DNA of 64,000 nucleotides from Anaerolineae bacterium. Its GTDB lineage: Bacteria; Chloroflexota; Anaerolineae; S140-20. The stretch spans positions 19,310 to 83,309 of the forward strand of contig JALUTT010000164.1 in NCBI GenBank assembly GCA_027021705.1, read 5' to 3'. Numbering within the stretch: position 1 is the first letter of the stretch; every line of letters starts with the position of its first letter. Both the position numbers and the translations under genes were made by a program. This document shows, piece by piece, positions 3,249-51,409 of this stretch. A model generated the notes under the pieces. The model made no database searches. It saw only the letters and a list, made by a program, of their open reading frames with translations, and was not told where the DNA came from.

Positions 3249-3259
3249 CTTATTGTCAT

Positions 3260-5183: not shown

Positions 5184-5233
5184 TCGTCGGGTTGGCCTGG
5201 CGATGCCAATGGCGGGCAAGAGGGACTGTCTGA
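4862..5233 (+). CDS. Small Pro/Thr-rich secreted protein with an LPEAG sortase-like sorting signal
   Basis: ATG 4862 follows GGAGG; signal peptide, PT linker, then LPEAG + hydrophobic helix + basic tail (WRCQWRAR). Confidence 0.75.
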   Translation: MEKRGLRWFVMMVFLASLLVVGLPGRGAAALGVGVQLTPRPTVPPGTVPPPTPCPPTSTPALAPSPTPAPPLLASPTPTSVVILPEAGAAPSGPGVSLLVVLGLLAVVVGLAWRCQWRARGTV

Positions 5234-5343
5234 GAAACCCCCTGAACCCGACTCCGGTGAGCTACCCTTATCGCTGGGCACTGCCCAACCTGCGGAGGAT
5301 TAAGGGCATCAAAATACCTAAATCCACAGCGAGAGGTGAAAGT

Positions 5344-35878: not shown

Positions 35879-38800
35879 CTACCGACCGCCTTCCTTCAAG
35901 AGCAAAGGAAGGAAGAGGACGTGTTGGAAGGGCTCCCCTCCCGACCCAGGTGACGCCAGCAAGAGGTAGGTGCCCAACGCCGTCACCGGCGCCACCACCG
36001 CTTGCTGCCCCTCGTCCAGATGGGCCGGGACCTCCACCCACGTCTGACGAACCGGGTCCCATCGGTAGAGCCCCAGGGCCTCCGGCCTCACCGACGACGT
36101 GATGAGGGCGTCGTCGTAGTGCAGCTTTAGGACCGCCGGCCGCTCCAGGCTCGCCAACGCCCCCGACGCCGTGATGTCGTAGGGATGGCCCACCGGCACC
36201 AACCCCTGAGGTGGCGGCCCCGGCACCGCCCCCGGCGGCGTGATCACCACGTAGGCTCCATCGCCCGGCAGGCTGCCGGACGCCAGGTGCAAACTCAGGT
36301 TCCCATCGTTGGCGTAGAGGTCCCAGCTTCGATCCCCGGTCACCCGATGCAGCCGGTAGGTGGCCTGCAACCAGACCAGCCGCTCACCCACACTCCCCAC
36401 TGCCCGAATGCGCCCCATCCCCCGCGCCGTGGCCTCCAGAGAGACGGCCCCGCTATAGATGCCCGTGGCAGGGCTGTAGGCCAGGGTGGGAACATAACCG
36501 GTCTCCCCGCCCGGCTCCGTGATGACAACGGTGGGGTCTGCGTCGGGGCCAAAGCCGAGCAGGAAGATCAGCAAGTCAATCCGGTCGGGGTCCTGGCCCG
36601 GCTCGGCCACCACCCGCAGGTGGGGGATCGAACCGGTGCTCTGGACTGCCGAACCGGTCACCGGGGCCATCGTCAGGTTGAGGGTCATCGCCGTTCCCAC
36701 GGTGACGCTCCCCGCCAGCCCCCCGTCGAAAGAGGCAGCCCGCAACGTGTCTCCTGCAATGGCCCCGTAGACCGCCAGGCGGCCATTGCCGTCGGTGAAC
36801 CCCTGGCCGATAACCCGCCCATCCTGTTTGTAGAGGGCGACGATGGCCCCCCAGTAAGGCCCTTGGGGACCGTAGACGGTCAACTGACGAGGAGGGGGTG
36901 AGGGACCTTCTTGATGGACCTGGACCAGGGGCCACGCCGGCAGGCTGGATGGCATCCCCTCGGGCCCGGCCACGACACCTCCCCGATCGGCCGGGGTTGC
37001 GAGCCGCCAGCGCGGTGGGTCTTGGACGTCCCCGTACATCCGGCCCAGCGTCTCCCAATCCGACTCGCCGCGAAGCTGCCATTGAGCCGTATTCTCGCAC
37101 CGGTCAGACCAGAGGCCGGGAACGCCCCGCATCGCCAGTTCGCTGCTGGTGTAGTGGTAATCCATCGCACTGGCGTTGGTCGCATCGGTAGCGGGATTGC
37201 GGTTCTCCGGTCCGGTGCAAGAGGCCGGCACCTCACCGATCAGATTCCCGTCCTGGTCGAACAAGTAAGCAAAGTACTCATCGTACAGGTAGAGGGCGTA
37301 GTGGCCAAACTCATGGGCCAGGGTACGGTAGCCTTCGGGCCGGTCCCACGCTCCCTGGTTGCTGCTGTGACCATCCCACCCCCGGCCTATCCGAATGACG
37401 TGGGACCTATCATCGGAGGTGATGCCCCCCACGTAAGCGTGGGGCCGGACGACGTTCTTGGTCGCCACCTGCACATCGGCCTCCGCCCAGTAAGCCCCAT
37501 CGTCGTAGAGCGCCACCTGTCCCAAAGCCATCTGCCCATCGGTGAGGTCGTAGAGGTAGTCGGAGGCGTAGCGGACCGCCCGGGCGATCTCGTCCAGGTA
37601 GGCTTGGGTAGCATCCCATTCGATGGAGACGAGCAAATTGAAGAGGATGAGAGGGTGGCTCTCCCGAAGGACCAGTCGCTGCTCGCCGGAACCGCTGACG
37701 ACGAAGGGACGAGCGCTGCCGTCGGTATCCCAGATCAGGCTGGTCCGATAGACGCGGTAGGCCCAGCCCCCGTGGCCGGCCCGGGCCGTGGGTTGCTCCG
37801 CTTGGAGGGCCAGGGCGACCAGCGTGGTCCCCATATCCAGCGGACCGGCGTTGAGCAACCCGGCCCGGTCGGTGGTCCCAACGGCCTCGCCATCGGCATA
37901 GACCGTGGCCCCGGCGACGGGATTGCCCCCCTCATCCACCACCCGAATGAACCAGGGAGCCGCCACCCGGAAGGGAGGACTCTTGCCGTCCTGGGCAGGC
38001 CATAGGATAGGACCAAGGCGGTAACCAGGCTGAGCCCGGATGCGGAAGACCACGTTGTCGCTCTTGATCAGGTCCGCGCCGGCGTCCCAGACAAAGAGAT
38101 GCGACGTTCCCTCAGGCGAGGCAGAAAGCGCCGTCGTCCCATCGCCGCCGGGACCAGGCGTGGCCGGGAACCACGCCCCCCCACCGTTGGGCGAGAACTC
38201 CGGGAAGATGCGGGCGACAGGATCCCCCTCGGGATCGAAGAGGGTGTACAGAATCGAGACCTGGGTTTGGGTGATGATGTGGGGAGTTGGAGCGAGGGGC
38301 GCGTCGTGAGTGGGCCCAGGGCGGGGGATGACCACGTAAGGGGGATCGTTCACCGACGGAGCAGGGGTCCGTCGGGGGTTCCGGTAGAGCAGATTCCGGC
38401 TGACACTGCTCACCGCCAGGTCCAGGTCCCCATCGCCATCGTAATCCCCCCAAGCCAGGCCGGGGGTGCTATCGGCCTCGGCCGAGGACCAGACAGCCTC
38501 GGTCGCCAGCACCCCTCCGTCGTTGCGGTAGAGCCGGTTGGGCTGGCGATGGTTGCCCGCAACCAGATCCAGGTCCCCGTCGCCGTCATAATCCCCCCAG
38601 GCCAGGGCCGAGGTCCGATCCGACTCGTCCGAGGACCAGACCGCGCTGGTGGTCAGGACACCGTCGTCATTGCGGTAGAGCCGGTTGGGCTGCCCCGTCG
38701 CCGTCCCGTTGCCCACCGCCAGGTCCAGGTCTCCATCGCCGTCGTAGTCCCCCCATGAGAGGCTGGTGGTGTTGTCCTCCTCGGCCGAGGACCAGACGGC

Positions 38801-40606
38801 TTCGGACGTCAGCACGCCGCCGTCGTTGCGGTAGAGCCGGTTGGATTGGCCGGCGAAGTCCGGTCGCCCGTTGCCCACCGCCAGGTCCAGGTCCCCATCG
38901 CCGTCGTAATCCCCCCAGGCAACGCTGCGGGTGGTGTCGGCCTCGTCGGAGGACCAGACCGCGCCGGTGGTCAGGACACCGTCGTCGTTGCGGTAGAGCC
39001 GGTTGGGCTGACCGTCGTTGCCCACGACCAGGTCCAGGTCCCCGTCGCCGTCGTAATCCCCCCAGGCGACGCTGCGGGTAGCGTCGGCCTCGTCGGAGGA
39101 CCAGACCGCGCCGGTGGTCAGAACGCCGCCGTCATTGCGGTAGAGCCGGTTGGGTTGGCCGTCGTTGCCTACGGCCAAGTCCAGGTCCCCGTCGCCGTCG
39201 TAATCCCCCCAGGCGACGCTGCGGGTAGCGTCGGCCTCGTCGGAGGACCAGACCGCGCCGGTGGTCAGGACACCGTCGTCATTGCGGTAGAGCCGGTTGG
39301 GCTGCCCATCGTTGCCCACGACCAGGTCCAGGTCCCCGTCACCGTCGTAATCCCCCCAGGCCAAGCCGGAAGAAGGCTCCTCCTCGGCCGAGGTCCAAAC
39401 CGGGCCGTCCAACACCACGCCGTCGTTGCGGTAGAGCCGGTTGGGCTGATTGAGGTTTCCTACCGCGATGTCCAAGTCTCCATCGTTATCGTAGTCCCCC
39501 CAGGCCACCCCTATCGTGTAGTCCACCTCGGCTGAGGTCCAGATGGCCTCGGCCGTCAACACACCACCGTCGTTGCGATAGATTCGGTTGGGCACCCCCC
39601 CGTGGGAACCGCCTCCCGTCAGCAGGTCCAGATCACCATCAGCATCGTAGTCCCCCCAGGCCACGCTCCAGATCAGATCCTGCTCGACAGAAGACCAGAC
39701 GGCCCCGGTCGTCAGCATCCCACCGTCGTTGCGGTAGAGCCGATGGGGGGCCAGGCCGTTGCCGGCGACCAGGTCCAGGTCCCCGTCGCCGTCGTAGTCC
39801 CCCCAGCCGGCGTCGGTCGTGGGGTCCGACTCATCCGAGGACCAGACGGCGCTGGCCGTTAGCACACCGCCATCGTTGCGGTGGAGTTCGTTCACGCCGT
39901 TGCGCCCTACGGCCAGGTCCAGGTCTCCATCGTTGTCGTAGTCGCCCCAGAGCACGACGGACACGGGGTCCACGTCTGCCGAGGACCAGACCGCGCCGGT
40001 CGTCAAGGTTCCCCCATCGTTGCGATAGAGCTGGATCGGCTGTCCCCCGTTCCCGACGGCCAGGTCCAGGTCCCCGTCGCCGTCGTAGTCCCCCCAGGCA
40101 ACGCTGCGGGTGGTGTCGGCCTCCTCGGAGGACCAGACCGCGCCAGTGGTCAGGACGCCGCCGTCGTTGCGGTAGAGCCGGTTAGGCTGACCCTCGTTGC
40201 CCACCGCCAGGTCTAGGTCCCCGTCGCCGTCGTAATCCCCCCAGGCAACGCTGCGGGTGGTGTCGGCCTCCTCGGAGGTCCAAACGGCCACCGTGGTCAG
40301 CACGCCATGATCGTTGCGGTACAGGTGGTTGGGGCCGTTGTTGCCCACGACCAGGTCCAGGTCTCCGTCGTTGTCGTAGTCCCCCCAGGCTATGCTCCTG
40401 GTCACGGCCGCCTCTGTGGACACCCAGGCCGACGTGAAGGCAGGCGGGTCGGTCTGGGCCGCAAGGCGCCGATGGGGAGACAACAAGGGCAGAAGAAGGA
40501 TCGAGAGGGTGAGCCAGAGGCCAACGTTCCTCCGGCGATTGCCTTCAGAGGTGATGGCCGGCGGGGTGGCCGGTCTACTGCCGGATGAGAGAGGTCTATC
40601 GGACAT
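35879..40606 (-). CDS. Secreted FG-GAP/VCBS-repeat protein (14 repeats) with a CLCA-like Zn-metalloprotease domain, a GAIN/ZU5-like domain and an LFLPLLLK tail
   Basis: 14 x WGDYDxDGDLD; HEFGHYALYLYDEY; signal peptide. Confidence 0.85.
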   Translation of the reverse strand: MSDRPLSSGSRPATPPAITSEGNRRRNVGLWLTLSILLLPLLSPHRRLAAQTDPPAFTSAWVSTEAAVTRSIAWGDYDNDGDLDLVVGNNGPNHLYRNDHGVLTTVAVWTSEEADTTRSVAWGDYDGDGDLDLAVGNEGQPNRLYRNDGGVLTTGAVWSSEEADTTRSVAWGDYDGDGDLDLAVGNGGQPIQLYRNDGGTLTTGAVWSSADVDPVSVVLWGDYDNDGDLDLAVGRNGVNELHRNDGGVLTASAVWSSDESDPTTDAGWGDYDGDGDLDLVAGNGLAPHRLYRNDGGMLTTGAVWSSVEQDLIWSVAWGDYDADGDLDLLTGGGSHGGVPNRIYRNDGGVLTAEAIWTSAEVDYTIGVAWGDYDNDGDLDIAVGNLNQPNRLYRNDGVVLDGPVWTSAEEEPSSGLAWGDYDGDGDLDLVVGNDGQPNRLYRNDDGVLTTGAVWSSDEADATRSVAWGDYDGDGDLDLAVGNDGQPNRLYRNDGGVLTTGAVWSSDEADATRSVAWGDYDGDGDLDLVVGNDGQPNRLYRNDDGVLTTGAVWSSDEADTTRSVAWGDYDGDGDLDLAVGNGRPDFAGQSNRLYRNDGGVLTSEAVWSSAEEDNTTSLSWGDYDGDGDLDLAVGNGTATGQPNRLYRNDDGVLTTSAVWSSDESDRTSALAWGDYDGDGDLDLVAGNHRQPNRLYRNDGGVLATEAVWSSAEADSTPGLAWGDYDGDGDLDLAVSSVSRNLLYRNPRRTPAPSVNDPPYVVIPRPGPTHDAPLAPTPHIITQTQVSILYTLFDPEGDPVARIFPEFSPNGGGAWFPATPGPGGDGTTALSASPEGTSHLFVWDAGADLIKSDNVVFRIRAQPGYRLGPILWPAQDGKSPPFRVAAPWFIRVVDEGGNPVAGATVYADGEAVGTTDRAGLLNAGPLDMGTTLVALALQAEQPTARAGHGGWAYRVYRTSLIWDTDGSARPFVVSGSGEQRLVLRESHPLILFNLLVSIEWDATQAYLDEIARAVRYASDYLYDLTDGQMALGQVALYDDGAYWAEADVQVATKNVVRPHAYVGGITSDDRSHVIRIGRGWDGHSSNQGAWDRPEGYRTLAHEFGHYALYLYDEYFAYLFDQDGNLIGEVPASCTGPENRNPATDATNASAMDYHYTSSELAMRGVPGLWSDRCENTAQWQLRGESDWETLGRMYGDVQDPPRWRLATPADRGGVVAGPEGMPSSLPAWPLVQVHQEGPSPPPRQLTVYGPQGPYWGAIVALYKQDGRVIGQGFTDGNGRLAVYGAIAGDTLRAASFDGGLAGSVTVGTAMTLNLTMAPVTGSAVQSTGSIPHLRVVAEPGQDPDRIDLLIFLLGFGPDADPTVVITEPGGETGYVPTLAYSPATGIYSGAVSLEATARGMGRIRAVGSVGERLVWLQATYRLHRVTGDRSWDLYANDGNLSLHLASGSLPGDGAYVVITPPGAVPGPPPQGLVPVGHPYDITASGALASLERPAVLKLHYDDALITSSVRPEALGLYRWDPVRQTWVEVPAHLDEGQQAVVAPVTALGTYLLLASPGSGGEPFQHVLFLPLLLKEGGR

Positions 40607-40627: not shown

Positions 40628-41911
40628 TCACCGGAGCACCACCGGCAGGTAGACCTGGTACGCTGCCACCTGCCAGCTCAGTTCCCAGAGGTCGAGGCGC
40701 GGTGTCGCGCCGGCCACCGTTGAGGAGAACGTAGCCCGTAGCCGGAGGGCAGGGTATTGGTGAGGATCGAGATGGCTAAGGTGGGTCCTGCTGACAACGT
40801 GGGTCAACAGCACCGTGCCGTTCAGGTCCAAGAGGTCCACCGTCAGCGTCGCGGTGGGAGGGCTCACCACGGCGGTGAAAGTCAAGCTCCCCCAGGCGGC
40901 TATCGCCATCGAGGGGGTGATGGGCTGCGAGAGGATGGTTCCCTCCCCCGGCGTGTTCGCCAGGACCACCCCCTGCTCGTCTGGAGATCCGCCGAGGGTC
41001 ACGTTGGCGCTCCCCGCCGGGTCAAGACCGCTGAAATCGTCGAAGTCGTCCCGCCACACCGGGGTGCTCATCAGAGCGTAGGTGGTGAAGCGCGACGTGG
41101 CGACTGTGAGATAGCGCTGCGCGGAGAAGAGCCGCCCTCCCAACCTCTCCCAGCGTCGGTGGAAGGCATCCCAGGCGAAGATGGCCAAGGTATGCGGGTC
41201 GGCGCCGGCCAACGTTGTCTCGTCGTAGTAAAACCGCAAGTCCATCGGCCTGTTGGTCACGAGGAGGGCACCGGCAGCCCGCACACTGTAGGGGCTGCCC
41301 ACAAGGCGGTGGCCGGGAGGAGGCGGACCGGGAGGCGCGAAACCGGGCACGATGACCACGTAGGTATCGGCAGGAAGGGTATCCGTGCCGACCAGGGTCA
41401 GTTGCAGGTTGCCATCCACGGAACGGATCGTCTGGAGGGTCGAGGCAGGCACGTAAGCCCGGTAGAAGTCCACCGTCCCCGTATCCAGGCCCGTCGTCGT
41501 GGTGATGCTCAGCGGTCCCGAGGCCCCGGTTCCCGGCGTGAAGCCCGGCGCCGTCGTGGTGTAGAGCTGGTCGGTATCCGAGTAGACCATCGTGTACGAA
41601 TCCTTGTCGTGGCCGGGACCGATGCCCACGTTAAGGAATACATCCCCATCCAGCTTCCCCACGCCTCCCGCCTTGATGAAAAGCGCCGTCCCATCCTGGC
41701 TGGGCACAACGTCGAGGAAGGGAGCGAGGGCAGATGCTTGCTGCTTCAAAGGAGGGGCACCACCTGTCGGTTCCGGGGCCGGCACCTGCCCGGCCACTGG
41801 CCTGACCGCGCTTTTGGCGGTAGAATAGAGGGTAGCCCCGGTCATCAAGAGGAGGCCGAGCAACAAGGTGATCAACCGCGTGTAACCGTTGGGACGATGC
41901 TTAGAGATCAT
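40628..41911 (-). CDS. Secreted protein sharing a ~220-aa module with the C-terminus of the downstream FG-GAP protein; VYLPVVLR tail
   Basis: ATG 41911 follows AGGAG; signal peptide; DGNLQL...YVVI.P...PGPPP.G...VG.PY is shared with 35879..40606. Confidence 0.8.
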   Translation of the reverse strand: MISKHRPNGYTRLITLLLGLLLMTGATLYSTAKSAVRPVAGQVPAPEPTGGAPPLKQQASALAPFLDVVPSQDGTALFIKAGGVGKLDGDVFLNVGIGPGHDKDSYTMVYSDTDQLYTTTAPGFTPGTGASGPLSITTTTGLDTGTVDFYRAYVPASTLQTIRSVDGNLQLTLVGTDTLPADTYVVIVPGFAPPGPPPPGHRLVGSPYSVRAAGALLVTNRPMDLRFYYDETTLAGADPHTLAIFAWDAFHRRWERLGGRLFSAQRYLTVATSRFTTYALMSTPVWRDDFDDFSGLDPAGSANVTLGGSPDEQGVVLANTPGEGTILSQPITPSMAIAAWGSLTFTAVVSPPTATLTVDLLDLNGTVLLTHVVSRTHLSHLDPHQYPALRLRATFSSTVAGATPRLDLWELSWQVAAYQVYLPVVLR

Positions 41912-42000: not shown

Positions 42001-44346
42001 ATGCCAACCCCAGCAGAGGAACCAGGACGAGGCCTGATCAACGCCTTCTTCACCGCTCTTAACACCCGCCACTTGGATCGGTGTGAGGCCGCTTTAGACC
42101 AACTCGAAGCTTTGGCCCGTCATCAGCCGGCCTATGCCCCTTGGTGCACCTACCTCCGAGGCATCCTGATCAACGAACGGGACTGCGACTGGGCCGAGGC
42201 CGAGGCGATCTTCAGCCGTCTATTGGAGACAGACCTGGAGCCTGCGTTGCACGGTCGGGTGCTCCTGGCTCTGGGGCGGTCGTACCAGTACCAAGGCCGT
42301 TGGCAGGAAGCCCTCCACACCTATGAAGCTGCCGTTTCCCTCTTCATCGAGCTCAACCGACCTGTTGACCAAGCTAAGGCGTGGAAACAGATGGCGATTT
42401 GCTGCCGACGCGGGTTCACTCAGGGCGACTTCAACGCGGCTGCCCTGGACCAAGGGATCACCTACTGTCGGCGGGCTTTGGACCTGCTGGAGGCCATTGA
42501 AGCGCCTTCACCGAGCGTGGTCTGGCTGATCGGTTCCGTGTGGAACACCCTGGGGCTCATCCACCGGAGCCTGCGCCAATGGGATGAGGCCATCGCCTGC
42601 TATCAACGGGACCTGGCCCTCTGCCGCTCTCTAGGCGACCGCCTGGGCGAAGGACTCTCTTACGGCAACCTGGGCGAGGTCTACCAGAGGCGTGGGCCGG
42701 ATACTTGGCCCCAGGCTCTGGATGCCTACCGGCAGGCCCTGGCAATCATCCGAGAGTTCGATGATCGCTACGAAGAGATTGAAGTCCTGGCCAATCTAGG
42801 CTCCCTGCACCGGGAAATGGGGAAGCCGGTACGGGCCTTGGAGCACTATGACCGGGCCATCGGCCTGATTGAAGCGCTGCGGGCTGGTGCTTCATCGGAG
42901 GAAGCCCGCGCCGGGTTTCTGGCGACAACGGTAGATGTCTACGCCAACACCGTGTTGCTCTGCCTAGAGATGGAGCGAGGTGATCAGGCTTTCGATTACG
43001 GGGAACGGGCCCGGTCACGGGCTTTCCTCGACGTCCTGGTGTCTCACTCGCCGGCCCTCGCCCGCCGGATGGTGGCGGTGCCGACAACGCTGGCCCAGGT
43101 CCAGGCAGCCCTCCCCCCCGATGCCTTGCTGTTGGAGTACTTTACCACCGGTCTGGTGGAAGCCCAGGATCGCCGGCCGGCCTCGTCCCATCGCCAGGTC
43201 TACCGCCACCGCTTCCCCCCGGCCCGGACGCTGATCTTCGCCATCACCCGACAGGGCTTCTGGGTCCACGACACGGGCCTCTCTCCCAACGACCTGCTTC
43301 CCCGCCGGCTCGACAGCGTCGTAGAGCGGCATTTCTTGAAGCCAGAACTCCGGCGTCGGCTATACGATCATCTCATCGCTCCGGTGGAACCGCTCCTCCG
43401 AGGCCGGCGTCGGCTCTACCTGGTCCCCCACGGTCCCCTCCACTACATCCCCTTCCAGGCTCTCATCGCTCCCGACGGAGATACGCTACTGCGGGAAGGA
43501 GGTCCCTCGTTCGTCTACGCCCCCAGCGCGACCTTTCTCCTCCATAGCCGGCAGCGAACGGAAGGAGCCGCGCCTGCCCCTCTCTTGGCACTGGGCTACA
43601 ATGGACAGGACCGGATGGCCCTGCGCTTTGCAGAAGCGGAAGCCCAGCGTGTTGCCCAGGTCACCGGAGGGCGAGCTCTGATCGGCCCTACGCCCAAGAA
43701 GGCAATCCTCTATCGGGAAGCAGCCGGTCACCAGGTGCTCCACATCTCCTGCCACGGTGAGTTCGACCCCGATCTCCCCCTGGCCTCTGCCCTCTACCTA
43801 GGCCCCGGAGAGACCCTGACGGCGATGGAAGTGCTAGAGCACCTTCGTCTGCGCTGTGATTTGGTGGTTCTGAGCGCCTGTGAGAGCGGTCTCAGTCGGG
43901 TGCGCCGGGGAGATGAGTTGATCGGCCTGACGCGGGCCTTTTTCTACGCAGGCACTTCGGCATTGCTTTCCACCCTGTGGCGAGTGGACGAACGCTCAAC
44001 CCTGATCCTGATGGAGCAGTTCTACCAGGGCCTGCAGGCCGGGCTGGGCTTTGCCGACGCTCTCAGCCGGGCTCAGCTCTACCTGAAGAGCCTGTCCCGG
44101 CGCGAAGCTTCGAAGCTCCTAGAGCGCTTCCTGCTGGAGGACTCCGCCTCAGCTTGGCCGACCCTTTTCGAGGTCTTGCGCCGGCCCCAGACCCATCCCA
44201 AGGGATGGGCAGAATCGGCGATGGACGAGCAGACCGGGCTGGGATGGGCGAGGAGGCACGAGGAACGCCCCTTTGCCGATCCGTACCACTGGGCTCCTTT
44301 CATCCTTACAGGAGATCGCACCCTGTTAGGAGTAGAGGTGAGGTGA
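42001..44346 (+). CDS. TPR + CHAT (caspase HetF associated with TPRs) cysteine protease
   Basis: N-terminal TPRs; ERARSRAFLD; LVPHGPLHYIPF; catalytic HISCHG and VLSACESG; PYHWAPFIL. Confidence 0.92.
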   Translation: MPTPAEEPGRGLINAFFTALNTRHLDRCEAALDQLEALARHQPAYAPWCTYLRGILINERDCDWAEAEAIFSRLLETDLEPALHGRVLLALGRSYQYQGRWQEALHTYEAAVSLFIELNRPVDQAKAWKQMAICCRRGFTQGDFNAAALDQGITYCRRALDLLEAIEAPSPSVVWLIGSVWNTLGLIHRSLRQWDEAIACYQRDLALCRSLGDRLGEGLSYGNLGEVYQRRGPDTWPQALDAYRQALAIIREFDDRYEEIEVLANLGSLHREMGKPVRALEHYDRAIGLIEALRAGASSEEARAGFLATTVDVYANTVLLCLEMERGDQAFDYGERARSRAFLDVLVSHSPALARRMVAVPTTLAQVQAALPPDALLLEYFTTGLVEAQDRRPASSHRQVYRHRFPPARTLIFAITRQGFWVHDTGLSPNDLLPRRLDSVVERHFLKPELRRRLYDHLIAPVEPLLRGRRRLYLVPHGPLHYIPFQALIAPDGDTLLREGGPSFVYAPSATFLLHSRQRTEGAAPAPLLALGYNGQDRMALRFAEAEAQRVAQVTGGRALIGPTPKKAILYREAAGHQVLHISCHGEFDPDLPLASALYLGPGETLTAMEVLEHLRLRCDLVVLSACESGLSRVRRGDELIGLTRAFFYAGTSALLSTLWRVDERSTLILMEQFYQGLQAGLGFADALSRAQLYLKSLSRREASKLLERFLLEDSASAWPTLFEVLRRPQTHPKGWAESAMDEQTGLGWARRHEERPFADPYHWAPFILTGDRTLLGVEVR

Positions 44347-44475
44347 GGTTGACAGAAGGGATGGGGGCTACTGTGATCCCACGCTCCGCGCGGGGACTTT
44401 CCCGTTCTCTAGCTGAAGAGGAGAAGATGGACAGTGGATCCCCAATCCTTACTCTTACGGTAACCACCGCGAGAG

Positions 44476-45315
44476 TCAGGACCGGGGTGTGATCTCGAGG
44501 GCAAGATAGGCCAAGTCGTCTCTGAGGACCCGCTCGAAAAGCACCAGGCCGAAAGCGTCGGTCTGTCGAATTCCTAGAATCGTTTTCCCCCGCCTAAGAG
44601 CCACCGTTGTACCTGCCAGATAAGGCCATCCCCCTTTGCTGGGAATGTTGACCTCGACGGTCAGTGTGCAGTAAGCCGAATCAGCCTGTTCTGCCTCGGC
44701 TGTGACCGTGACTTCCATATCCTCAACAGCCTCTTTCAGGGAAAACTGCCACAGGATGTTGGGGGCCCTGTTGGACTTCAGGCCGGCAGCGTAAGCTGGC
44801 TGATAGGCCGATGACTGCAAAGCGCGAAGCAGTTCCGACGAAAACTCGATGACCAAGCGTCCCAGAGCATCTTGATACCAAGCTCTGCCGCCCTCTGGAG
44901 GTTCCTTGGTCAACTCCGCTTGGAGAAAGGGCAGTTTGGGCTCTGGGTAATGGGGAGGCTCCCTCTCCTCCTCGCCGTAAGCCAAATCGAGCATCTCTAG
45001 GAGCGCTACGTATTCCGCCGAGCAGTAAGGGCAGGTCTCCAGGTGAACTGCAACCGGATGCCACCGGGCTTCCTCTGCCTGTCCCCTCGTCTCCGCCTGA
45101 AGGTACTCGGGCAACAGTGCCTGACATGCCTGACAAGTCAACAGGTCTTCCTCATCCATCGCCAGGGCTCGGAGAAACTGTTCCATTCTACGCTCGCAGC
45201 GGGGACAAGTGCTTACGTGGTGGACAATGGCATCCAGCACAGTAGGATCACGGTTCGGATCTTTCAAGTAGGTCAGTAGCCCTTCGATGACTGTACGGCA
45301 TCCTGCCGTCTGCAT
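44476..45315 (-). CDS. Soluble anti-sigma factor-like protein with two zf-HC2 (ZAS) motifs and a C-terminal beta-sandwich
   Basis: HVSTCPRC and CQACQALLPEYL...HLETCPYC; no TM segment; directly downstream of an ECF sigma gene. Confidence 0.8.
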   Translation of the reverse strand: MQTAGCRTVIEGLLTYLKDPNRDPTVLDAIVHHVSTCPRCERRMEQFLRALAMDEEDLLTCQACQALLPEYLQAETRGQAEEARWHPVAVHLETCPYCSAEYVALLEMLDLAYGEEEREPPHYPEPKLPFLQAELTKEPPEGGRAWYQDALGRLVIEFSSELLRALQSSAYQPAYAAGLKSNRAPNILWQFSLKEAVEDMEVTVTAEAEQADSAYCTLTVEVNIPSKGGWPYLAGTTVALRRGKTILGIRQTDAFGLVLFERVLRDDLAYLALEITPRS

Positions 45316-45338
45316 AGACTTTCCCCTTCGTCACAAGT

Positions 45339-45367
45339 AAAGAGTAAGCTAACCCTGGAATATTACA
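45339..45367 (-). promoter_or_regulatory. Predicted ECF promoter TGTAAT-N17-CTCTTT upstream of the anti-sigma gene
   Basis: Minus strand reads tgtaat-attccagggttagctta-ctcttt, 23 nt before ATG 45315. Confidence 0.65.
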
Positions 45368-45388
45368 ACGCAAGGATGGGTATTGCGT

Positions 45389-46117
45389 TCACAATGCTCC
45401 TGGCGCAAAATACTCCCTTAACGCCTTGTCCTCTCGCAGTCGTGCGATGCCCCGATGCCGAAGCACCCGGACATGGCCGGCTGTGATCCCCAGTCGGTCT
45501 CCAATCGCCTCATCGCTCAGCCCGCCGAAGAATTTCAGCACGATCACCTCTCGCTGCCGTTCATCGGGCAAGCGATGAAGAGCCTCGATCAGGACCTGCG
45601 CTCGTTCTCGCCGATCCAGACTGGCAGATGGAGACGGAACACCGCCTTCGGCAATGGGCTCCAGTGCGGAGCTGTGATCTCTTGCCCGCTGCTCCTGCTG
45701 GAAAGCATGGCGCAACTTGTTCAGGGCGAAAGCCAGGAATGCGCCAGGACTCCGGCAACGGTCTATCTGCTCGTAAATAAGGACCAGAGCCCGTTGGGTC
45801 ACGTCCTCGGCCAACTCCGGCCACCGGTTGTAGGCAACCCGGAACAAGAAGCGGAACAATTCGCGGTATCCCTGCTCCCGTCGGTCCGGCCTTTCCGCCT
45901 GCAGGCAAGCCTCATAGAGCACAAGGGTGTACTGATGTTTGACCAGCCGTTTCAGCTCGGTCGGCGATGCGACCGATGAAGCGGAGTCAAGCACCCTCTC
46001 CACCAGGACATCGGCGGGCAGCAAGCGCCAGCCGTACTGCGCCATCAAATCCTGCACAATGCCCAGGCAGGTCTGATAGGCGGTCACCTCCCCTGTTAAG
46101 CCCGTCTCGCGCCTCAT
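45389..46117 (-). CDS. ECF-type sigma-70 factor with an N-terminal extension
   Basis: Region 2 LAEDVTQRALVLIY..F; region 4 LPDERQREVIVLKFFGGLSDEAIGDRLGITAGHVRVLRHRG; ATG 46117 follows GAGGAGG. Confidence 0.9.
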   Translation of the reverse strand: MRRETGLTGEVTAYQTCLGIVQDLMAQYGWRLLPADVLVERVLDSASSVASPTELKRLVKHQYTLVLYEACLQAERPDRREQGYRELFRFLFRVAYNRWPELAEDVTQRALVLIYEQIDRCRSPGAFLAFALNKLRHAFQQEQRARDHSSALEPIAEGGVPSPSASLDRRERAQVLIEALHRLPDERQREVIVLKFFGGLSDEAIGDRLGITAGHVRVLRHRGIARLREDKALREYFAPGAL

Positions 46118-46144
46118 TCCCCCCTCCTCAACGGTGGCTGTTCT

Positions 46145-46153
46145 ATTATAGCA
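46145..46153 (-). promoter_or_regulatory. Extended -10 (TGCTATAAT) housekeeping promoter for the ECF sigma gene
   Basis: Plus strand attatagca, 28 nt upstream of the start codon. Confidence 0.65.
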
Positions 46154-46213
46154 CACTTGTGGGGTAGTTGGAAGCCCCCAATGGCCCCCTGCAGAAGACC
46201 ATCTCCGAATCTC

Positions 46214-46242
46214 CGTAACATCTCCCCAGGGAGAGGCTCTTT
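46214..46242 (+). promoter_or_regulatory. Predicted ECF promoter CGTAAC-N17-CTCTTT, divergent from the sigma gene
   Basis: cgtaac-atctccccagggagagg-ctcttt. Confidence 0.65.
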
Positions 46243-46350: not shown

Positions 46351-46430
46351 AAACTGCGGGAAACTACGGTTTTGCTTCGGGGGGGTGCGGGAAATGGCCA
46401 AAAACTGCGAGAAACTGCGAGAAACTGCGG
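46351..46430 (+). repeat. 10-bp-period AAACTRCG direct repeats (candidate operator)
   Basis: Units at 46351, 46361, 46402, 46412 and 46422. Confidence 0.8.
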
Positions 46431-46662: not shown

Positions 46663-48660
46663 ATGCCGATACCCGTGGACAGCCCGCTCATCGGCCTGCG
46701 CTTGGGTAGACGTTATGAGATTCAAGAGCCCCTGGGCGGAGGAGGGATGGCCCTCGTCTTCGTAGCCCACGATTCCATCCTCGACCGCCTAGTGGCCATC
46801 AAAGCGGTCGAACTCCGACCCGAGGCCGTTGAGACGTTTATCCGCGAAGCCCGCACCATCGCCCGGTTGGACCATCCCCACATCCTGGACGTCTACGACC
46901 TGGGAACCGAGCAAATCGGCGAAGAGAATCTGGTCTACCTGGTGATGCAACTGGCCAGCGGTGGCGCGCTGACCAACCGGTTGCGCGAAGGTCCTCTACC
47001 TCCTAATGAGGTAAAACGCATCCTGTATCAGGTGAGCAATGCATTGGACTACGCCCACCGCCAGGGGGTTGTCCATCTCGATCTGAAACCCGCCAACATC
47101 CTCTTTGACGAGCACGGCAACGTGCTGGTGGCCGACTTCGGCTTGGCCCAATTGCTCTACAACGCCGATCCCGTCAAGGCCGACGCTTTCGTCGGCACAC
47201 TGGCCTATACGCCGCCTGAGCAGATGTTGGGCCGAGAGATCACCCCGGCCTCCGATGTCTACGCGCTGGGCCTCGCCCTCCACGAAATGTTGACGGGCGA
47301 ACTGCCGGAACGAGAATGGACCGACGAAGGACTCATCTCCCATCCGGCACCCTCGCTTCCGCCTGCCATCCGCGCCGTTCTCGAAAAGGCCACCCACCAC
47401 CATTCCGGTCAGCGCTACGCCACAGCCGGGGAGTTGGCCGAGGCGTTTGCGGAGGCCCTGGCACGCTCCTCGTTCGGCCTGCACGCACGACGGGAACCCT
47501 CACCCATTCCTCCAGGACCGTCTGTCGAGGTGCCGACAGAAGCCGGTGTCCTACGGCGGTGGCCTGGACCGATGCTGCGCCTTGGCCTGATTTCGGTCCT
47601 GGTGCTTATCGCAGTCGGCCTCTCATTGCTGGGATGGGAGCGGTGGAAAGCGCGGGGGCTTGCGGATCGGGCCTCGGCAGCTCTCCCTTCGTCCCATTCG
47701 TCCGATGCTCCCACCCCGTCCCCGTCACCGCTTCCCACCCCTACTCCCACCTTCACGCCATCCCCCTCGCCGTCACCAACGCCCCAGCCGTCGCCCACGC
47801 CGCTCCTAACACCAACCCCTTCTGTTCGCTATGCCCTCATACGGGTCGAGCGTCTAAGCGTTTATGCCGGGCCTGGAGAGCAATGCCAAAAATTGGGGGA
47901 GGTTTATCGGGGAAGCCGCCTGCCCCTGCGAGGTCGAACGGCCGATGGCGCCTGGTGGCAGGTGGAATACTTGGGGCGGGAAGGCTGGATCCGAGCTCAA
48001 CCGATCAGGGCCGATATGCCCATAGAGGCCATCCCAATCGTGAACCCACCCCCTTGCCCAACGGCCCTCCCTACGGTTTCGCCCACGCCGACAGCGTCGC
48101 CGACACCCCGCCCCCTCGAACTGAGTAGCTCATTCCGTCTGCAGAACCCCGGCTTTGAGGGGATCCGGGACAACATCATCCCCGGCTGGAACTGGTGGGC
48201 CTTCGACAACTATTCTCCGAAGGAGGATTACGACCCTGCTACCAGCTTCGAGACGCCTCTCTTCAAACAGGCCGACGATCCAGCCCGTTTCATCAACGGA
48301 CCAACCCTGCAGGTTGACGGGGCGGGATTCCTGAAATTCCGCGCTTATGTCTTCCAATCCGTCAACGTAGGCCCCGGTACCGCCGTGCGTTTCTCCGCCG
48401 CAGCCAGCGCGTATACCGATGCCAAAGCGATCAACGTCGCCGTCGGCGTGGACCCCAACGGGGGTCCTGGCTGTCAGAACGCCCACTGGGGCACGGTGCG
48501 GGAGCTCCATCAGAACGATGGGGTAGTGCGGTTGGTTGCTCCGTTGGTGACGGCGGGACCCACCGGCTGGGTGACGCTTTGCCTCTACGCCGAGCCCCTC
48601 TATCCTGCCGTCAACAACGCGGCTTTCTTCGACGACGCCGTGTTGATCGTGATACCCTAG
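46663..48660 (+). CDS. Transmembrane Hanks-type Ser/Thr kinase with an extracellular SH3-like domain and a jelly-roll domain
   Basis: LGGGGMALV, VAIK, HLDLKPAN, DFG; TM segment; PT linker; VYAGPG...WWQVEY..GWI. Confidence 0.9.
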   Translation: MPIPVDSPLIGLRLGRRYEIQEPLGGGGMALVFVAHDSILDRLVAIKAVELRPEAVETFIREARTIARLDHPHILDVYDLGTEQIGEENLVYLVMQLASGGALTNRLREGPLPPNEVKRILYQVSNALDYAHRQGVVHLDLKPANILFDEHGNVLVADFGLAQLLYNADPVKADAFVGTLAYTPPEQMLGREITPASDVYALGLALHEMLTGELPEREWTDEGLISHPAPSLPPAIRAVLEKATHHHSGQRYATAGELAEAFAEALARSSFGLHARREPSPIPPGPSVEVPTEAGVLRRWPGPMLRLGLISVLVLIAVGLSLLGWERWKARGLADRASAALPSSHSSDAPTPSPSPLPTPTPTFTPSPSPSPTPQPSPTPLLTPTPSVRYALIRVERLSVYAGPGEQCQKLGEVYRGSRLPLRGRTADGAWWQVEYLGREGWIRAQPIRADMPIEAIPIVNPPPCPTALPTVSPTPTASPTPRPLELSSSFRLQNPGFEGIRDNIIPGWNWWAFDNYSPKEDYDPATSFETPLFKQADDPARFINGPTLQVDGAGFLKFRAYVFQSVNVGPGTAVRFSAAASAYTDAKAINVAVGVDPNGGPGCQNAHWGTVRELHQNDGVVRLVAPLVTAGPTGWVTLCLYAEPLYPAVNNAAFFDDAVLIVIP

Positions 48661-48673: not shown

Positions 48674-51409
48674 ATGCAAGCAGACCTCCTCGGCATACGC
48701 CTGAACGGGCGATACGAGCTGCAACATTTCCTGGGTAGAGGAGGGATGGCCCTCGTCCTGACCGCCCACGATCACGTCCTTGACCGCCAAGTGGCCGTCA
48801 AGATCGTCCGACCGGATCTCACCTGGTCCTCCGACGCTGCCGATACCTTCATCCGCGAGGCTCGCATCATCGCCCGGCTGGACCATCCTCACATCTTACA
48901 CATCTACGACTTGGGCACCGAGCGCATCGGCCACAAACCCCTCGTCTACCTGGTGATGCAATGGGCCGGCGGTGGAACCCTAGCCCATCGGCTGGAGGCC
49001 GGCCCCCTCCCCCCTGACGAGGTTCAGAAGATCCTGCAACAGGTGGGCGATGCGCTGGACTACGCCCACCGCCAAGGTGTCATTCACCTCGACTTGAAGC
49101 CGGCCAACATCCTCTTCGACGAGCACGGCAACGCGCTGGTGGCCGACTTCGGCCTGGCCAAGCTGCTGCAGGAAACGACCCACGCGAAGGCCGACACGGG
49201 TGTGGGCACGCCCGCCTATATGGCCCCTGAACAGTGGTTAGGAGGGAAAGTCAGCCCCTCCTCCGACGTCTACGCCCTGGGCCTCATCCTATATCAGATG
49301 CTGACAGGCCAACTGCCGGAGCGCAAGTGGACAGAACAAGGACCCGTCCCCCAGCCGGAGGCCTCTCTGCCACCGGACGCCCGCCCGATCATTGAAAAGG
49401 CCATCCAAACCGATCCCAACCGGCGCTACGCCACCGCAGGCGAGATGGTTCGGGCCTTTTTGGAAACGTCCCGCCCCCAGCAGGTCACCGCGAGGCCATC
49501 TTGGCACAAGGCGCTCCCTGAAAGAGAACCCGAACCGGAGATTCAGGAGAGCCGGCGGAAGATCCCTCTACGCCCTCTCGCCATCGGGATGGCCCTCATC
49601 ATCGTTATCGTGGGGCTCCTGCTCTCGGGGGCGGGATTGCAACGATCCCGGGGGACAGCAGGGAAGGAGGCAGCAGCCCTCGCTGCCCTGCCAGCCTCCA
49701 CGGTCATCACCACGGCTACCTTTACGCCGACACCGACACCCTCACCCTCACCCTCACCTTCGCCCTCTCCCACACCCTCTCTCACCCCATCATTGACCCC
49801 CACCCCGTCACCGGTCCCCTATGCTGTGGTGATCGTAGAACGAGCGACCATTTACGCCGGGCCGGGAGAGACCTACGAGCCCCTGGGGGAGGTAAAACGG
49901 GGCGACCGCCTTCTCGTGAGAGGACGGTTAGCCGATGGAGAATGGCTGCAAGTGGATTACGTGGGGTGGCTGGGATGGATATCGGCGCAGGCCGTGACCC
50001 TCTCCCTTCCTCCCACCAGCCTTCCCCTCGTCGAAACCCCACCTATTCCAACCTTGACCCCCACACCGGTCCCAACGGCCACACCAATGCCCACGCCGAC
50101 TCCAGCCTGTCCCACAGAGCCAACCGGTGAGTTTGCGTATCTGTGGCGCAACCCCTTGGTACAGGACCGTCTGGGCTGCCCCTTTGACTCCCCCTCCATC
50201 ATCAAGGGGGTCATCGAGGCATTCCAGAACGGCTTGATGTACTGGCGGGAAGACCTACGGTGGATCTACGTCATCTACAACGACGGACACTGGGAGAGTT
50301 ACGAGGACACCTGGGCACCACCCGAACCGGAGCGAATCGGGCTAACCCCTCCCCCCGGCCTGGTGGAACCCCGGCGGGGCTTCGGCAAAGTCTGGAGGGA
50401 ACAACTCGGTGGCCCTGAAGCCGCCATCGGTTGGGCCACCGAGGAGGAATACCCGCTGCCATCCAGGATCCAGAACTACGAGCGGGGGATGATCCTGGAG
50501 GTCAATTCGGTCACTTACCTGCTCTACAGCGATATGAGCTGGCAAGATGCGAGGATGATCCCACCATCTCCCCCGACCCCGACAGCGCCGCCGGAGCCTA
50601 TAGGCCTCCCCTCCCACTGGCGCATCGTCTTCGCCTCCGAGCGGTCGGGCAACATCGAGCTCTACATCATGAATGCCGACGGCAGCGACCAGCGCCGGCT
50701 GACCGACAACCCGGCCGAGGACGACCGCCCCGCCGTCTCCCCCGACGGACAGTGGATCGCCTTCCAGTCCGACCGCGATGGGAACTCGGAAATCTACGTG
50801 ATGCGGGTGGACGGTAGCGAGCTGCGGCGGGTGACGACCAACCCAGGCAAGGACCACCTGCCCAAGTGGTCGCCCGACGGTCGGTGGATCCTCTTCAGCT
50901 CCGAGCGAAACGGCGTCTTCGATCTCTACGCCATCCGTCCCGATGGCACCGGTCTGCGCCGGATCACCCGGGACGAGTTCTACGACGGGTACGCCAGTTG
51001 GTCCAAAGGCGACTGGATCGTCTACCACTCCGGCGAGGGAGAGAAAGCCTACACCACCTGGGAGATCGTCGTGATCAAGGCCGACGGCAGCGGCCGCCGC
51101 CAGCTCACCCACAACGACGTCAACGACTGGTCGCCCAACTGGTCACCCGACGGACGGAGCATCCTCTTCATCAGCCGGCGAGGGGGCGACCCCGCCATCT
51201 ATATGATGGACGCCGACGGCAGTAACCCCCGCCTGGTGTACGACAGCCCCGGCTACGAATGGGGAGCTTCCTTCTCGCCCGACGGCCAGTGGATCGCCTT
51301 CACCTCTGACCAAAGCGGCGAGCACGAGGTCTACGTGATGAAGAGCGACGGCAGCTACGTCACCCGCCTGACCTACGAAGGGGGATGGTACCCGAGCTGG
51401 GTGCCCTGA
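48674..51409 (+). CDS. Transmembrane Ser/Thr kinase with an SH3-like domain, an LGCP/RGFGKVW domain and a TolB-like (PD40) propeller
   Basis: LGRGGMA, VAVK, HLDLKPAN, DFG, GTPAYMAPE; repeated SPDGxWIxFxSxR. Confidence 0.9.
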   Translation: MQADLLGIRLNGRYELQHFLGRGGMALVLTAHDHVLDRQVAVKIVRPDLTWSSDAADTFIREARIIARLDHPHILHIYDLGTERIGHKPLVYLVMQWAGGGTLAHRLEAGPLPPDEVQKILQQVGDALDYAHRQGVIHLDLKPANILFDEHGNALVADFGLAKLLQETTHAKADTGVGTPAYMAPEQWLGGKVSPSSDVYALGLILYQMLTGQLPERKWTEQGPVPQPEASLPPDARPIIEKAIQTDPNRRYATAGEMVRAFLETSRPQQVTARPSWHKALPEREPEPEIQESRRKIPLRPLAIGMALIIVIVGLLLSGAGLQRSRGTAGKEAAALAALPASTVITTATFTPTPTPSPSPSPSPSPTPSLTPSLTPTPSPVPYAVVIVERATIYAGPGETYEPLGEVKRGDRLLVRGRLADGEWLQVDYVGWLGWISAQAVTLSLPPTSLPLVETPPIPTLTPTPVPTATPMPTPTPACPTEPTGEFAYLWRNPLVQDRLGCPFDSPSIIKGVIEAFQNGLMYWREDLRWIYVIYNDGHWESYEDTWAPPEPERIGLTPPPGLVEPRRGFGKVWREQLGGPEAAIGWATEEEYPLPSRIQNYERGMILEVNSVTYLLYSDMSWQDARMIPPSPPTPTAPPEPIGLPSHWRIVFASERSGNIELYIMNADGSDQRRLTDNPAEDDRPAVSPDGQWIAFQSDRDGNSEIYVMRVDGSELRRVTTNPGKDHLPKWSPDGRWILFSSERNGVFDLYAIRPDGTGLRRITRDEFYDGYASWSKGDWIVYHSGEGEKAYTTWEIVVIKADGSGRRQLTHNDVNDWSPNWSPDGRSILFISRRGGDPAIYMMDADGSNPRLVYDSPGYEWGASFSPDGQWIAFTSDQSGEHEVYVMKSDGSYVTRLTYEGGWYPSWVP

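Follow-up and report, generated by a model that had tools for sequence, protein, structure and literature searches.

How might an alternative sigma factor be set free when the protein encoded directly downstream of it looks like a soluble inhibitor and a caspase-like protease is encoded opposite that inhibitor? The question is raised by a stretch of 64,000 nucleotides, hereafter the window, from an Anaerolineae bacterium of the phylum Chloroflexota (GenBank assembly GCA_027021705.1, contig JALUTT010000164.1, positions 19,310 to 83,309; all coordinates below are those of the window unless a locus is named). On its reverse strand the gene for a sigma factor of the extracytoplasmic function (ECF) type (45389-46117, 242 residues) lies immediately upstream of a gene for a 279-residue protein (44476-45315), labelled ASF, which is a candidate soluble anti-sigma factor with zinc-binding anti-sigma (ZAS) bundles in tandem. 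The gene for a 781-residue TPR-CHAT caspase-like protease (42001-44346) faces this pair from the forward strand, and a gap of 129 bp (44347-44475), in which no terminator-like site was called, separates its 3' end from that of the anti-sigma gene. The original prediction, which was made from the DNA itself, held that the protease is activated through its TPRs, cuts the anti-sigma factor in a linker and so releases the sigma factor, in a CRISPR-free unit of three genes; the coordinates of the open reading frames (ORFs) confirm these genes at the positions it gave them. To our knowledge, the release of an ECF sigma factor by a soluble, signal-activated protease has so far been shown only for accessory modules of type III CRISPR systems, namely Csx29/Csx30 and CalpL/CalpT. 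By mapping the genome context of the anti-sigma gene we found it highly probable that sigma factor, anti-sigma factor and CHAT protein constitute one functional module. We put the probability of the full cleavage model, in which the CHAT protease would cut the soluble anti-sigma factor and release the sigma factor in analogy to the characterised systems, at about one half.

The conserved association of the three genes was established in two sets of genomes. In the first, 185,579 species, each represented by one genome, were scanned for relatives of ASF and gave 42 loci, 36 of which (L001-L036) were counted as family; L036 shares only 28% identity, and the remaining six match short zinc-finger stretches only and were not counted. 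The record titles name Chloroflexota classes (Anaerolineae, Caldilineae, Chloroflexales), except for one "uncultured bacterium" and one Hyphomicrobiaceae label. The sigma gene is found directly upstream of the anti-sigma gene in 33 of the 36 loci (it is missing from L014 and L031, and L030 has no upstream DNA), and a CHAT gene is found beside the anti-sigma gene in 31 of the 32 loci that include downstream DNA, L013, L020, L022 and L033 ending at a contig edge. In at least four of these 31 loci (L031, L032, L034 and L035) the CHAT gene is split into two or three frames, which in metagenome-assembled genomes (MAGs) could reflect error or decay. The anti-sigma proteins fall into two subgroups, i.e. 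a double-ZAS subgroup to which the window belongs and a single-ZAS subgroup of ~236 residues. The latter is associated with a more distant ECF sigma factor of ~225 residues, which was missed by tblastn with the sigma factor of the window and was found by a sigma profile and, in 11 loci, by Pfam; the convergent TPR-CHAT gene is retained, as in L017 with a protease of 740 and an anti-sigma protein of 237 residues.

The second set consisted of 401 genomes sampled evenly across the phylum, 24 of which (21 of the 323 high-quality genomes) contain a relative of the anti-sigma factor at a match threshold of E <= 1e-10; some of these relatives are from complete genomes. Sixteen of the 26 matched places were fetched and, as one of them duplicates L014, 15 loci were compared; three further genomes of a genus that had been sampled three times and six matches to short zinc-finger stretches only were left out. 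A CHAT-domain gene lies within ~3 kb of the sigma/anti-sigma pair in 14 of these 15 loci, in arrangements that are convergent (7), divergent from the sigma gene (4) or co-directional (3). The four divergent cases belong to one genus and carry a gene for an 857-residue uncharacterised protein between the TPR-CHAT and sigma genes (the intervening gene was checked in L045 only). The co-directional genes encode a CHAT domain with a BNR/sortilin propeller in L052 (1215 residues) and, judged by profiles only, in L053. In L058 (positions 1995-7016 of that locus, reverse strand) the protein of 1674 residues combines CHAT, a guanylate/adenylate cyclase, a STAND-type AAA_16 domain, TPRs and SBP_bac_5, and its gene directly follows the sigma/ZAS anti-sigma pair. 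The coupling thus survives a change of gene order as well as a swap of the sensor part, which points to the CHAT domain and the anti-sigma factor as the constant functional partners. The gene-neighbourhood check that came with the original prediction has therefore turned out in its favour, and so has its description of the unit as free of CRISPR genes, in that no cas family was found among the 28 ORFs of the window scanned against Pfam, a scan to which no search of the remaining genome for Cas7-11 was added.

The features that had been ascribed to the 279-residue partner, that is two HxxxCxxC motifs, no transmembrane helix and a C-terminal beta domain, are borne out by motif analysis, hydropathy and an AlphaFold2 (AF2) model (mean predicted local distance difference test score, pLDDT, 78.5). 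The model contains two three-helix bundles. Bundle 1 (residues 4-52; 45160-45306, reverse strand; helices 4-18, 24-36 and 38-52) holds C6 and the motif H34-x3-C38-x2-C41, and bundle 2 (residues 61-114; 44974-45135, reverse strand) holds C61 and C64 and the motif H91-x3-C95-x2-C98, so that each bundle has cysteine upstream of its motif. Residues C61, H91, C95 and C98 are invariant in the family alignment (A1), and in bundle 2 the first CxxC is missing from several distant family members. In a set of 85 non-identical sequences of the family, two H-x3-C-x2-C motifs are present in 66, one in 18 and none in 1; the motif of bundle 1 is absent from 18 of the 85 (the single-ZAS subgroup), and bundle 2 is the anti-sigma domain that is always kept.

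The assignment as a ZAS protein follows from these motifs in combination with three other observations. Bundle 1 matches the RsrA model TIGR03988 (E 4.5e-5 over residues 6-45, below the cut-off), PF13490 (zf-HC2) is recorded for 9 of 56 relatives, and the family profile searched against the PDB recovers the cytoplasmic anti-sigma domain of RsiW from its structure with SigW (5wuq_C, E 7.3e-4, residues 64-136). A VIA-align superposition of the model on 5wuq_C gives Z 5.7 and a root-mean-square deviation (rmsd) of 3.3 over 63 residues. Motifs and models together support the view that the partner is a soluble anti-sigma candidate of the ZAS type. The zf-HC2 label of the original prediction accordingly survives as a ZAS assignment, and not as a Pfam call on the window protein itself, for which zf-HC2 was not called at E <= 0.01. 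As for solubility, the maximum Kyte-Doolittle mean over 19 residues is 1.01, versus 2.5-2.7 for the transmembrane helices of two neighbouring kinases, and transmembrane-like segments are found in neither the sigma factor nor the anti-sigma factor nor the protease (they are seen in both adjacent Ser/Thr kinases and in U459, the product of the gene on the far side of the protease gene).

The protein family is made up of stand-alone proteins. The 56 close homologues are ~230-300 residues long and, where a source is named, come from Chloroflexota, Chloroflexi or Anaerolineae MAGs. Against 1.84 billion cluster representatives the family profile gives 155 matches at E <= 1e-30, 711 at <= 1e-10 and 2165 at <= 0.001, the weaker of which are probably other zinc-finger anti-sigma factors; fused or longer forms were not found at E <= 0.001, which is weak evidence. 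The genome that contains the window has a single copy. Behind the bundles and a low-confidence stretch (residues 117-143) the model shows a C-terminal beta-sandwich (residues 146-276; 44488-44880, reverse strand) formed by strands in 146-157 and 187-276 with a pLDDT of ~85-94, from which residues 160-185 make an excursion. Foldseek returned nothing for this domain at E <= 0.001. The best match in VIA (SPOP MATH, Z 7.3, rmsd 4.0, 109 residues aligned) is within the range that is common for this tool, so that no fold is named here; MG1 of the E. coli alpha-2-macroglobulin gives Z 6.7 (rmsd 2.4, 70 aligned). The ESM Atlas gives 0.85-0.87 to unnamed clusters, which is a lead only, and the relative in L058 has weak CarboxypepD_reg/bMG3 matches (E ~1e-4, below the cut-off).

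Within the excursion lies the part of the anti-sigma factor that bears most directly on the proposed cleavage, namely a loop inserted in the beta domain (residues 169-185, PAYQPAYAAGLKS; 44761-44811, reverse strand), which includes the linker singled out beforehand (SAYQPAYAAGLKSNR, residues 169-183). The loop has a pLDDT below 50 and is predicted to be disordered, and it is the most conserved disordered stretch of the protein, with the consensus PxxQPAYAxxLKS. In the 85 sequences P169 is found 74 times, P173 67 times, A174 66 times and Y175 58 times. Position 180 is Lys in 78 and Arg in 4, i.e. basic in 82 of 85, and position 181 is Ser in 65, Ala in 8 and Gly in 7. A search of homologous linkers for a conserved [K/R][S/G] site, as had been suggested, is thus answered positively. 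In the distant members (alignment of the 15 loci, judged by eye) the flanking residues drift and many keep a basic residue followed by Gly or Ser (LRGE, MRGG, RRGP, FRG). A conserved motif in a predicted disordered loop resembles a docking or a cleavage site, and we consider the surroundings of K180-S181 a candidate site for recognition or cleavage by the CHAT protease; a cut in this loop would probably fall after the basic residue.

The protease itself matches the Pfam family CHAT (PF12770, of the caspase-like clan CD) with an E-value of 5.3e-57 (193.9 bits against a cut-off of 24) over residues 451-772, and many TPR families match its N-terminal part, where the model has a TPR superhelix (residues ~8-357). 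The AF2 model has a pLDDT of 82.5 and a predicted template modelling score (pTM) of 0.82. The motifs HISCHG (residues 581-586; 43741-43758) and LSACESG (residues 624-630; 43870-43890) occur exactly where the original prediction had placed an intact His/Cys dyad. The catalytic residues His585 (43753-43755) and Cys627 (43879-43881) are invariant in all 23 aligned family members, as are the SCHG and SACESG motifs. The best full-length structural match in Foldseek is Csx29 (8eey_B, from the Cas7-11-Csx29-Csx30 complex; E 4.0e-13, 13% identity); DdvA is third-best (8rot_A, 3.3e-12), and other craspases and human separase (9hn0_B, 4.6e-10) are also found, the identity to these matches being 11-16%. 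Given this low identity, and because the NCBIfam model of Csx29 (NF041237) scores 53.1 bits against a cut-off of 300 with only the CHAT core aligned (residues 469-674), the modelled architecture is that of the TPR-CHAT proteins Csx29, DdvA and separase, and the protein is not a Csx29. The Pfam TPR-S "sensor" match is weak (26.1 bits against a cut-off of 27.6). PADLOC finds nothing for the sigma factor, the anti-sigma factor or U459 and, in the case of the protease, only generic TPR matches and a weak BovA match (E 1.9e-6), so that no defence-system model fits. Of the 13 CHAT-domain matches in this genome of 5.19 Mb (open frames of 499-1943 residues), only the one in the window adjoins a member of the anti-sigma family.

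A variable insertion of low confidence in the protease (residues ~735-747; ~44203-44241) carries a [YH]xK[GS] motif in 8 of the 23 family proteases, i.e. in those of the window (THPKG), L001, L003, L006, L007, L009, L012 and L025, three of which read AYLKG; the motif is absent in the other 15. At the level of sequence this loop resembles the LK[SG] loop of the anti-sigma factor, and it may be an autoprocessing or a pseudosubstrate site.

The third member of the module matches Pfam Sigma70_r2 and Sigma70_r4 and exceeds the cut-off of the ECF model TIGR02937 (sigma70-ECF, E 1.1e-20). Its ORF extends to a GTG at 46156. Since the sigma factors of relatives align only from residue 8-37 of this ORF, and since M14 is preceded by a GGAGG-type ribosome-binding site (GGAGGGGGG) and a TGCTATAAT box, the ATG at 46117 is the more likely start. 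A conserved N-terminal extension of ~80 residues precedes region 2, which starts at about residue 79, counted from M14, in the double-ZAS subgroup and at about residue 41 in the single-ZAS subgroup. Extended -10-like boxes of the form TGnTA(T/A/G)A(A/T)T, in the window TGCTATAAT, occur in 14 of 31 upstream regions (the window and 13 loci), at distances of 36-210 nt from the aligned start of the sigma factor. They hint that the sigma gene is transcribed by the housekeeping sigma factor and is not autoregulated, which we regard as a lead only. Sharing of k-mers among the upstream regions is limited to TATAAT-like boxes. The stretch that separates the sigma gene from the first kinase gene contains CGCAGTTT four times (46351-46429, reverse strand), and three of these copies form a perfect tandem with a 10-bp period (AAACTGCGAG x 2.8). 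The whole window has 5 matches to CGCAGTTT versus 1.3 expected, and the repeats may bind a regulator as an array within the divergent promoter.

How, then, would the module work? In the cleavage model the ECF sigma factor would be made constitutively from a housekeeping-type promoter and would be held inactive by the adjacent soluble anti-sigma factor via its ZAS bundle(s), in the best reading bundle 2, as homology and adjacency suggest. The beta-sandwich would serve as a "bait" domain that exposes the conserved loop PxxQPAYAxxLK-S. The CHAT protease, by way of its variable sensor part (TPRs in the window), would respond to an intracellular cue, dock on the beta domain and cut the loop, probably after the conserved Lys/Arg. 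The clipped anti-sigma factor would then be destabilised or degraded, by analogy with Csx30 and CalpT, and the sigma factor would be freed to bind RNA polymerase; its likely targets might, more speculatively, include the flanking secreted and surface proteins. Sigma binding, cleavage and activation through the TPRs are all steps that we infer.

The step of docking was modelled, as had also been proposed, by a complex prediction for the full protease and residues 100-279 of the anti-sigma factor, each with its family alignment. The score is 0.38 (runs of 0.22, 0.38 and 0.40) against 0.00 for the best of three controls, at least 36% of the contacts agree between runs and the pLDDT of the partner is at least 63. 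Of 157 solved complexes 116 attain the mark applied, as do 2 of 215 mismatched pairs; scores of 0.60 or less account for only 18 of the 157 solved complexes and for both passing mismatches. The tool's verdict is weak support.

Several points weigh against the cleavage model. According to the tool's calibration, most verdicts of weak support are wrong, except where the pairing was probable from the outset. Since the CHAT gene runs towards the sigma and anti-sigma genes in the window, it is not co-transcribed with them, and the anti-sigma family can occur without CHAT: none is present in the DNA fetched for L036 or in 15 kb at L057, and the CHAT of L014, counted among the 31, is a remnant of 114 residues. 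The promoter motifs of the ECF groups ECF271 and ECF54 are absent from all 31 regions upstream of sigma genes (300 nt each), and no ECF-type promoter motif or regulon was found. Csx29, the closest structural match of the protease, cuts Csx30 after Leu or Met, and a basic residue ahead of the cut is a guess. The ZAS domain could itself act as a redox or zinc switch, which would make a protease unneeded for the release of the sigma factor. Finally, the model assigns no role to ZAS bundle 1 or to the N-terminal extension of the sigma factor.

The last but one of these points can be developed into an explanation of its own, in which the coupling is reversed and non-proteolytic. The anti-sigma factor would be a self-sufficient redox or zinc switch like RsrA or RsiW, and its beta domain would bind the TPR-CHAT protein as an inhibitor or scaffold, as securin does with separase, so that the output would be control of a protease that cuts other proteins, or joint control. 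The HxxxCxxC motifs with upstream Cys are indeed those of redox-sensing ZAS proteins, with the weak RsrA hit in line, and the CHAT fold is likewise similar to that of separase, an enzyme restrained by a pseudosubstrate inhibitor; the [YH]xK[GS] loop in 8 of 23 CHAT proteins fits the same logic, and the 13 CHAT-domain matches in the genome imply many roles for such proteases. On the other hand, the zinc ligands of bundle 1 are dispensable, given the 18 of 85 sequences without the motif, the first CxxC of bundle 2 is missing from several distant members, the sigma gene, present in 33 of 36 loci, speaks for an output at the level of transcription, and the two characterised systems, Csx30 and CalpT, operate by cleavage; we consider the reversed coupling unlikely. 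The long N-terminal extension of the sigma factor, with region 2 at residue ~79 instead of ~41, raises the alternative that the protease acts on the sigma factor, for instance by trimming these ~80 residues, with the anti-sigma factor as an adaptor or a second lock. There is a precedent in Haliangium, where, according to an excerpt of one report, a caspase-like protease of a type III-B system cleaves a putative sigma factor (bioRxiv 10.1101/2023.06.23.546230). However, the most conserved disordered motif of the module sits in the anti-sigma factor, and the extension is longer where there are two ZAS bundles than where there is one, a correlation that is based on no more than two subgroups and fits a role in binding, which makes the sigma factor a distinctly improbable substrate.

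Two further explanations concern the input and the wider role of the module. The trio could be an anti-phage or conflict (abortive-infection) sensor, with the TPR-CHAT protein detecting a phage product and the sigma factor turning on defence genes, which would be compatible with the cleavage mechanism. All three characterised analogues (Craspase, CalpL/T/S and DdvA/DdvS) control defence loci, sensor modules are swapped among the relatives as they are in conflict systems, and there is the weak TPR-S match. Yet PADLOC offers only the generic TPR matches and weak BovA match for the protease and none for the sigma factor, the anti-sigma factor or U459, the surrounding genes encode giant secreted or surface proteins, kinases and housekeeping functions and none is a defence gene, the cassette is single-copy and the conserved fourth gene encodes a signal-anchored protein, so that a defence role seems improbable to us. 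Lastly, ECF sigma factors that are controlled by kinases are known (PMC8999054, in the excerpt of section 3.4), and two Hanks-type Ser/Thr kinase genes (46663-48660 and 48674-51409, forward strand) are divergent from the sigma gene; phosphorylation of the ECF43 kind would reduce the CHAT protein to an unrelated neighbour. In a tblastn search with both kinases, however, the first 42 loci gave no kinase-domain match (the PD40 part of the second kinase only was found, in L014 and L032), while CHAT is kept in 31 of 32 loci. As the kinases are not conserved beside the module, this idea is largely refuted and is hardly credible any longer.

If the cleavage model is taken as the working view, the module can be compared with systems in which protease, inhibitor and sigma factor have been described, here from excerpts of the sources cited. 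In the type III-E CRISPR system the N-terminal domain of Csx30 binds CASP-sigma, Csx29 cuts its C-terminal domain and the fragments appear unstable (PMC10028731). The trio shares with this Craspase arm a cytoplasmic TPR-CHAT protein, a soluble sigma-binding inhibitor and an ECF-like sigma factor (inhibition and cleavage being proposed here), and the window protease, for which Csx29 is the best structural match, shares its His/Cys dyad and TPR-CHAT architecture. In contrast, the window has no Cas7-11/gRAMP or other cas gene, the trigger cannot be a crRNA-guided target RNA, the genes are convergent rather than arranged in one locus with cas genes, and the protease falls far below the Csx29 cut-off (53.1 versus 300 bits). 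The inhibitor, moreover, is a ZAS protein without detectable likeness to Csx30: searched against all PDB chains at E <= 1, the family profile finds only RsiW and a DUF6827 protein, and Csx30 is not among the best 50 VIA matches. The trio is best described, by analogy, as akin to Craspase (Csx29/Csx30/CASP-sigma) in its logic and not as a member of it; the epithet "Craspase-like" of the original prediction is apt for the shared logic and the TPR-CHAT architecture and not for a match to the Csx29 model; a distant relation of the partner to Csx30 at the level of the fold is conceivable.

There are closer precedents than the original prediction knew of, namely DdvA/DdvS, CalpL/T/S and the context of ECF54. 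In DdvA of Myxococcus xanthus a ZAS domain is fused to a periplasmic TPR-CHAT part, for which self-cleavage has been proposed and is undemonstrated, again on the basis of an excerpt (PMC11506125). One signalling unit thus combines an ECF sigma factor with a TPR-CHAT that has a His/Cys dyad and with an anti-sigma domain of the ZAS type; for this unit, as here, cleavage of the anti-sigma factor by CHAT is proposed. DdvA is, however, one transmembrane polypeptide with its TPR-CHAT in the periplasm, and needs intramembrane proteolysis of the RseP type, whereas in the window protease and anti-sigma factor are separate, soluble and encoded on opposite strands, and the anti-sigma factor has a beta-sandwich of its own. 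In the type III-B CRISPR system the released sigma factor is CalpS, set free when CalpL cleaves CalpT (bioRxiv 10.1101/2023.06.23.546230, in part). The likeness, drawn by description only, consists of a soluble sensor-protease, a soluble anti-sigma candidate and an ECF-type sigma factor; CalpL differs in being a CRISPR-linked SAVED-Lon protease that is activated by cyclic oligoadenylate and has no CHAT domain. The classical zinc anti-sigma factors RsrA and RsiW have in common with ASF the HxxxCxxC motif with upstream Cys and the three-helix bundle, as reflected in the RsiW profile match and the weak RsrA hit, and differ from its family in the tandem bundles (66 of 85), the beta-sandwich with its conserved loop and the pairing with CHAT (31 of 32 loci).

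Two catalogued ECF groups are also relevant. ECF54 is 100% actinobacterial and has the promoter GTATCAG ... CTCC (PMC7826278, PMC8999054). In the parts of the catalogue on its context (PMC7826278 supplement; PMC8999054, section 3.3) it has no anti-sigma factor, a carboxypeptidase-regulatory-like protein at position +1, a subtilase and a CHAT/TPR protein, with proteolytic control being proposed. A nearby CHAT/TPR protein and a beta-sandwich domain at +1 are points of likeness (the weak CarboxypepD_reg hits come from L058 only); the trio, however, is from Chloroflexota, its +1 protein has ZAS bundles, the ECF54 promoter motif is found in 0 of 31 regions, and there is no subtilase among the window ORFs scanned. 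ECF271, from Chloroflexi and Bryobacter, has a soluble zinc-finger anti-sigma factor at +1 and the motif GCTGCTG (-35) and GxTCA (-10) according to the section of the supplement on it (PMC7826278), and is entered as "unknown mechanism" in Table 1 of PMC8999054, the part of that source used here. This group, which was compared by description only, is like the trio in being mostly from Chloroflexi and in its soluble zinc-finger anti-sigma factor at +1, and is unlike it in that the entry, as far as it was available, mentions neither CHAT nor any context beyond +1 and its promoter motif occurs in 0 of 31 sigma upstream regions. ECF271 is the only catalogued group that fits both the taxonomy and the type of anti-sigma factor, and the trio may or may not belong to it. 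Full-text searches, which covered few subscription journals and an incomplete supplement of the ECF catalogue, found no soluble ZAS anti-sigma factor paired with a separate cytoplasmic CHAT protease. The principle, that a signal-activated protease cuts an anti-sigma factor, and all of the domains are already known; what we did not find described in the literature searched is a CHAT form with two soluble proteins, a tandem ZAS, a bait domain or the swapping of sensors.

Around the trio the window contains giant secreted proteins (VWA, LVIVD, SBBP/DUF7948, PKD, FG-GAP), the two kinases, a prolidase-type peptidase and SelB. Six DNA sequencing runs contain the stretch or parts of it, and no RNA run is listed for it. 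Divergent from the CHAT gene lies U459 (40628-41911, reverse strand, 427 residues), which encodes a signal-anchored protein of no known family. The sole hydrophobic segment of the protein is N-terminal, no Pfam or NCBIfam model matches it, and the ESM Atlas gives no usable feature match, a resemblance to Ig-like surface proteins reaching a TM-score of only 0.43. In the close subgroup 15 loci have a U459 homologue that faces away from CHAT, and in the other subgroup other uncharacterised proteins take this place. U459 is thus the fourth gene that the close subgroup conserves, and it may belong to the regulon. A conserved DNA block upstream of the CHAT gene (GCGGTAGAAT) was considered as a promoter; since it codes, on the other strand, for a conserved "YSTAK" peptide of U459, no promoter is claimed for it. 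A consensus scan found nothing that exceeds shuffled sequences. U459 is followed by the gene for a 1575-residue FG-GAP-repeat protein (35879-40606, reverse strand), with which it shares a C-terminal segment and in which an HEFGH (HExxH) motif is visible by eye, no peptidase family being called. The pair of U459 and a protein of 1000-1650 residues with a U459-like C-terminal part recurs in L001, L003, L007, L008 and L018.

Further away, a run of ~35 kb (1-35563) encodes very large secreted or surface proteins of up to 2307 residues with VWA, DUF1194, DUF7948 and SBBP repeats, LVIVD repeats, DUF11, CARDB, PKD and InhA-like MAM domains. The two kinases are tandem transmembrane Ser/Thr kinases with Pro/Thr/Ser-rich linkers and SH3_3, the second having PD40 beta-propeller repeats in addition. 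SelB, the selenocysteine-specific elongation factor (55585-57474, forward strand; GTP_EFTU, SelB beta-barrel and winged-helix domains), suggests that the organism uses selenoproteins.

The module is of interest to the fields of both ECF sigma factors and type III-E CRISPR systems, and it extends a known principle rather than breaking one. In a stand-alone and all-soluble version the proposed step in which CHAT cuts the anti-sigma factor would become accessible to simple reconstitution, and the trio would show what a TPR-CHAT protein senses when no CRISPR effector is attached to it. It could also supply compact, orthogonal switches from protease to transcription, and it would bear on the origin of the effector arm of Craspase. 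A bolder reading, which we hold only tentatively and think somewhat less likely to be right than wrong, is that filamentous Chloroflexota have a general, CRISPR-independent pathway from caspase via anti-sigma factor to sigma factor. In this pathway interchangeable sensors (TPR, BNR propeller, cyclase-STAND-SBP) would trigger a cut after Lys/Arg in the bait loop, and the protease would be restrained by a loop of its own that resembles the bait (AYLKG). The Craspase arm, like the fused DdvA, would then have branched off in specialised form from an older, free-standing design. For the Chloroflexota themselves, the trio would give a mechanism to a soluble-ZAS ECF system.

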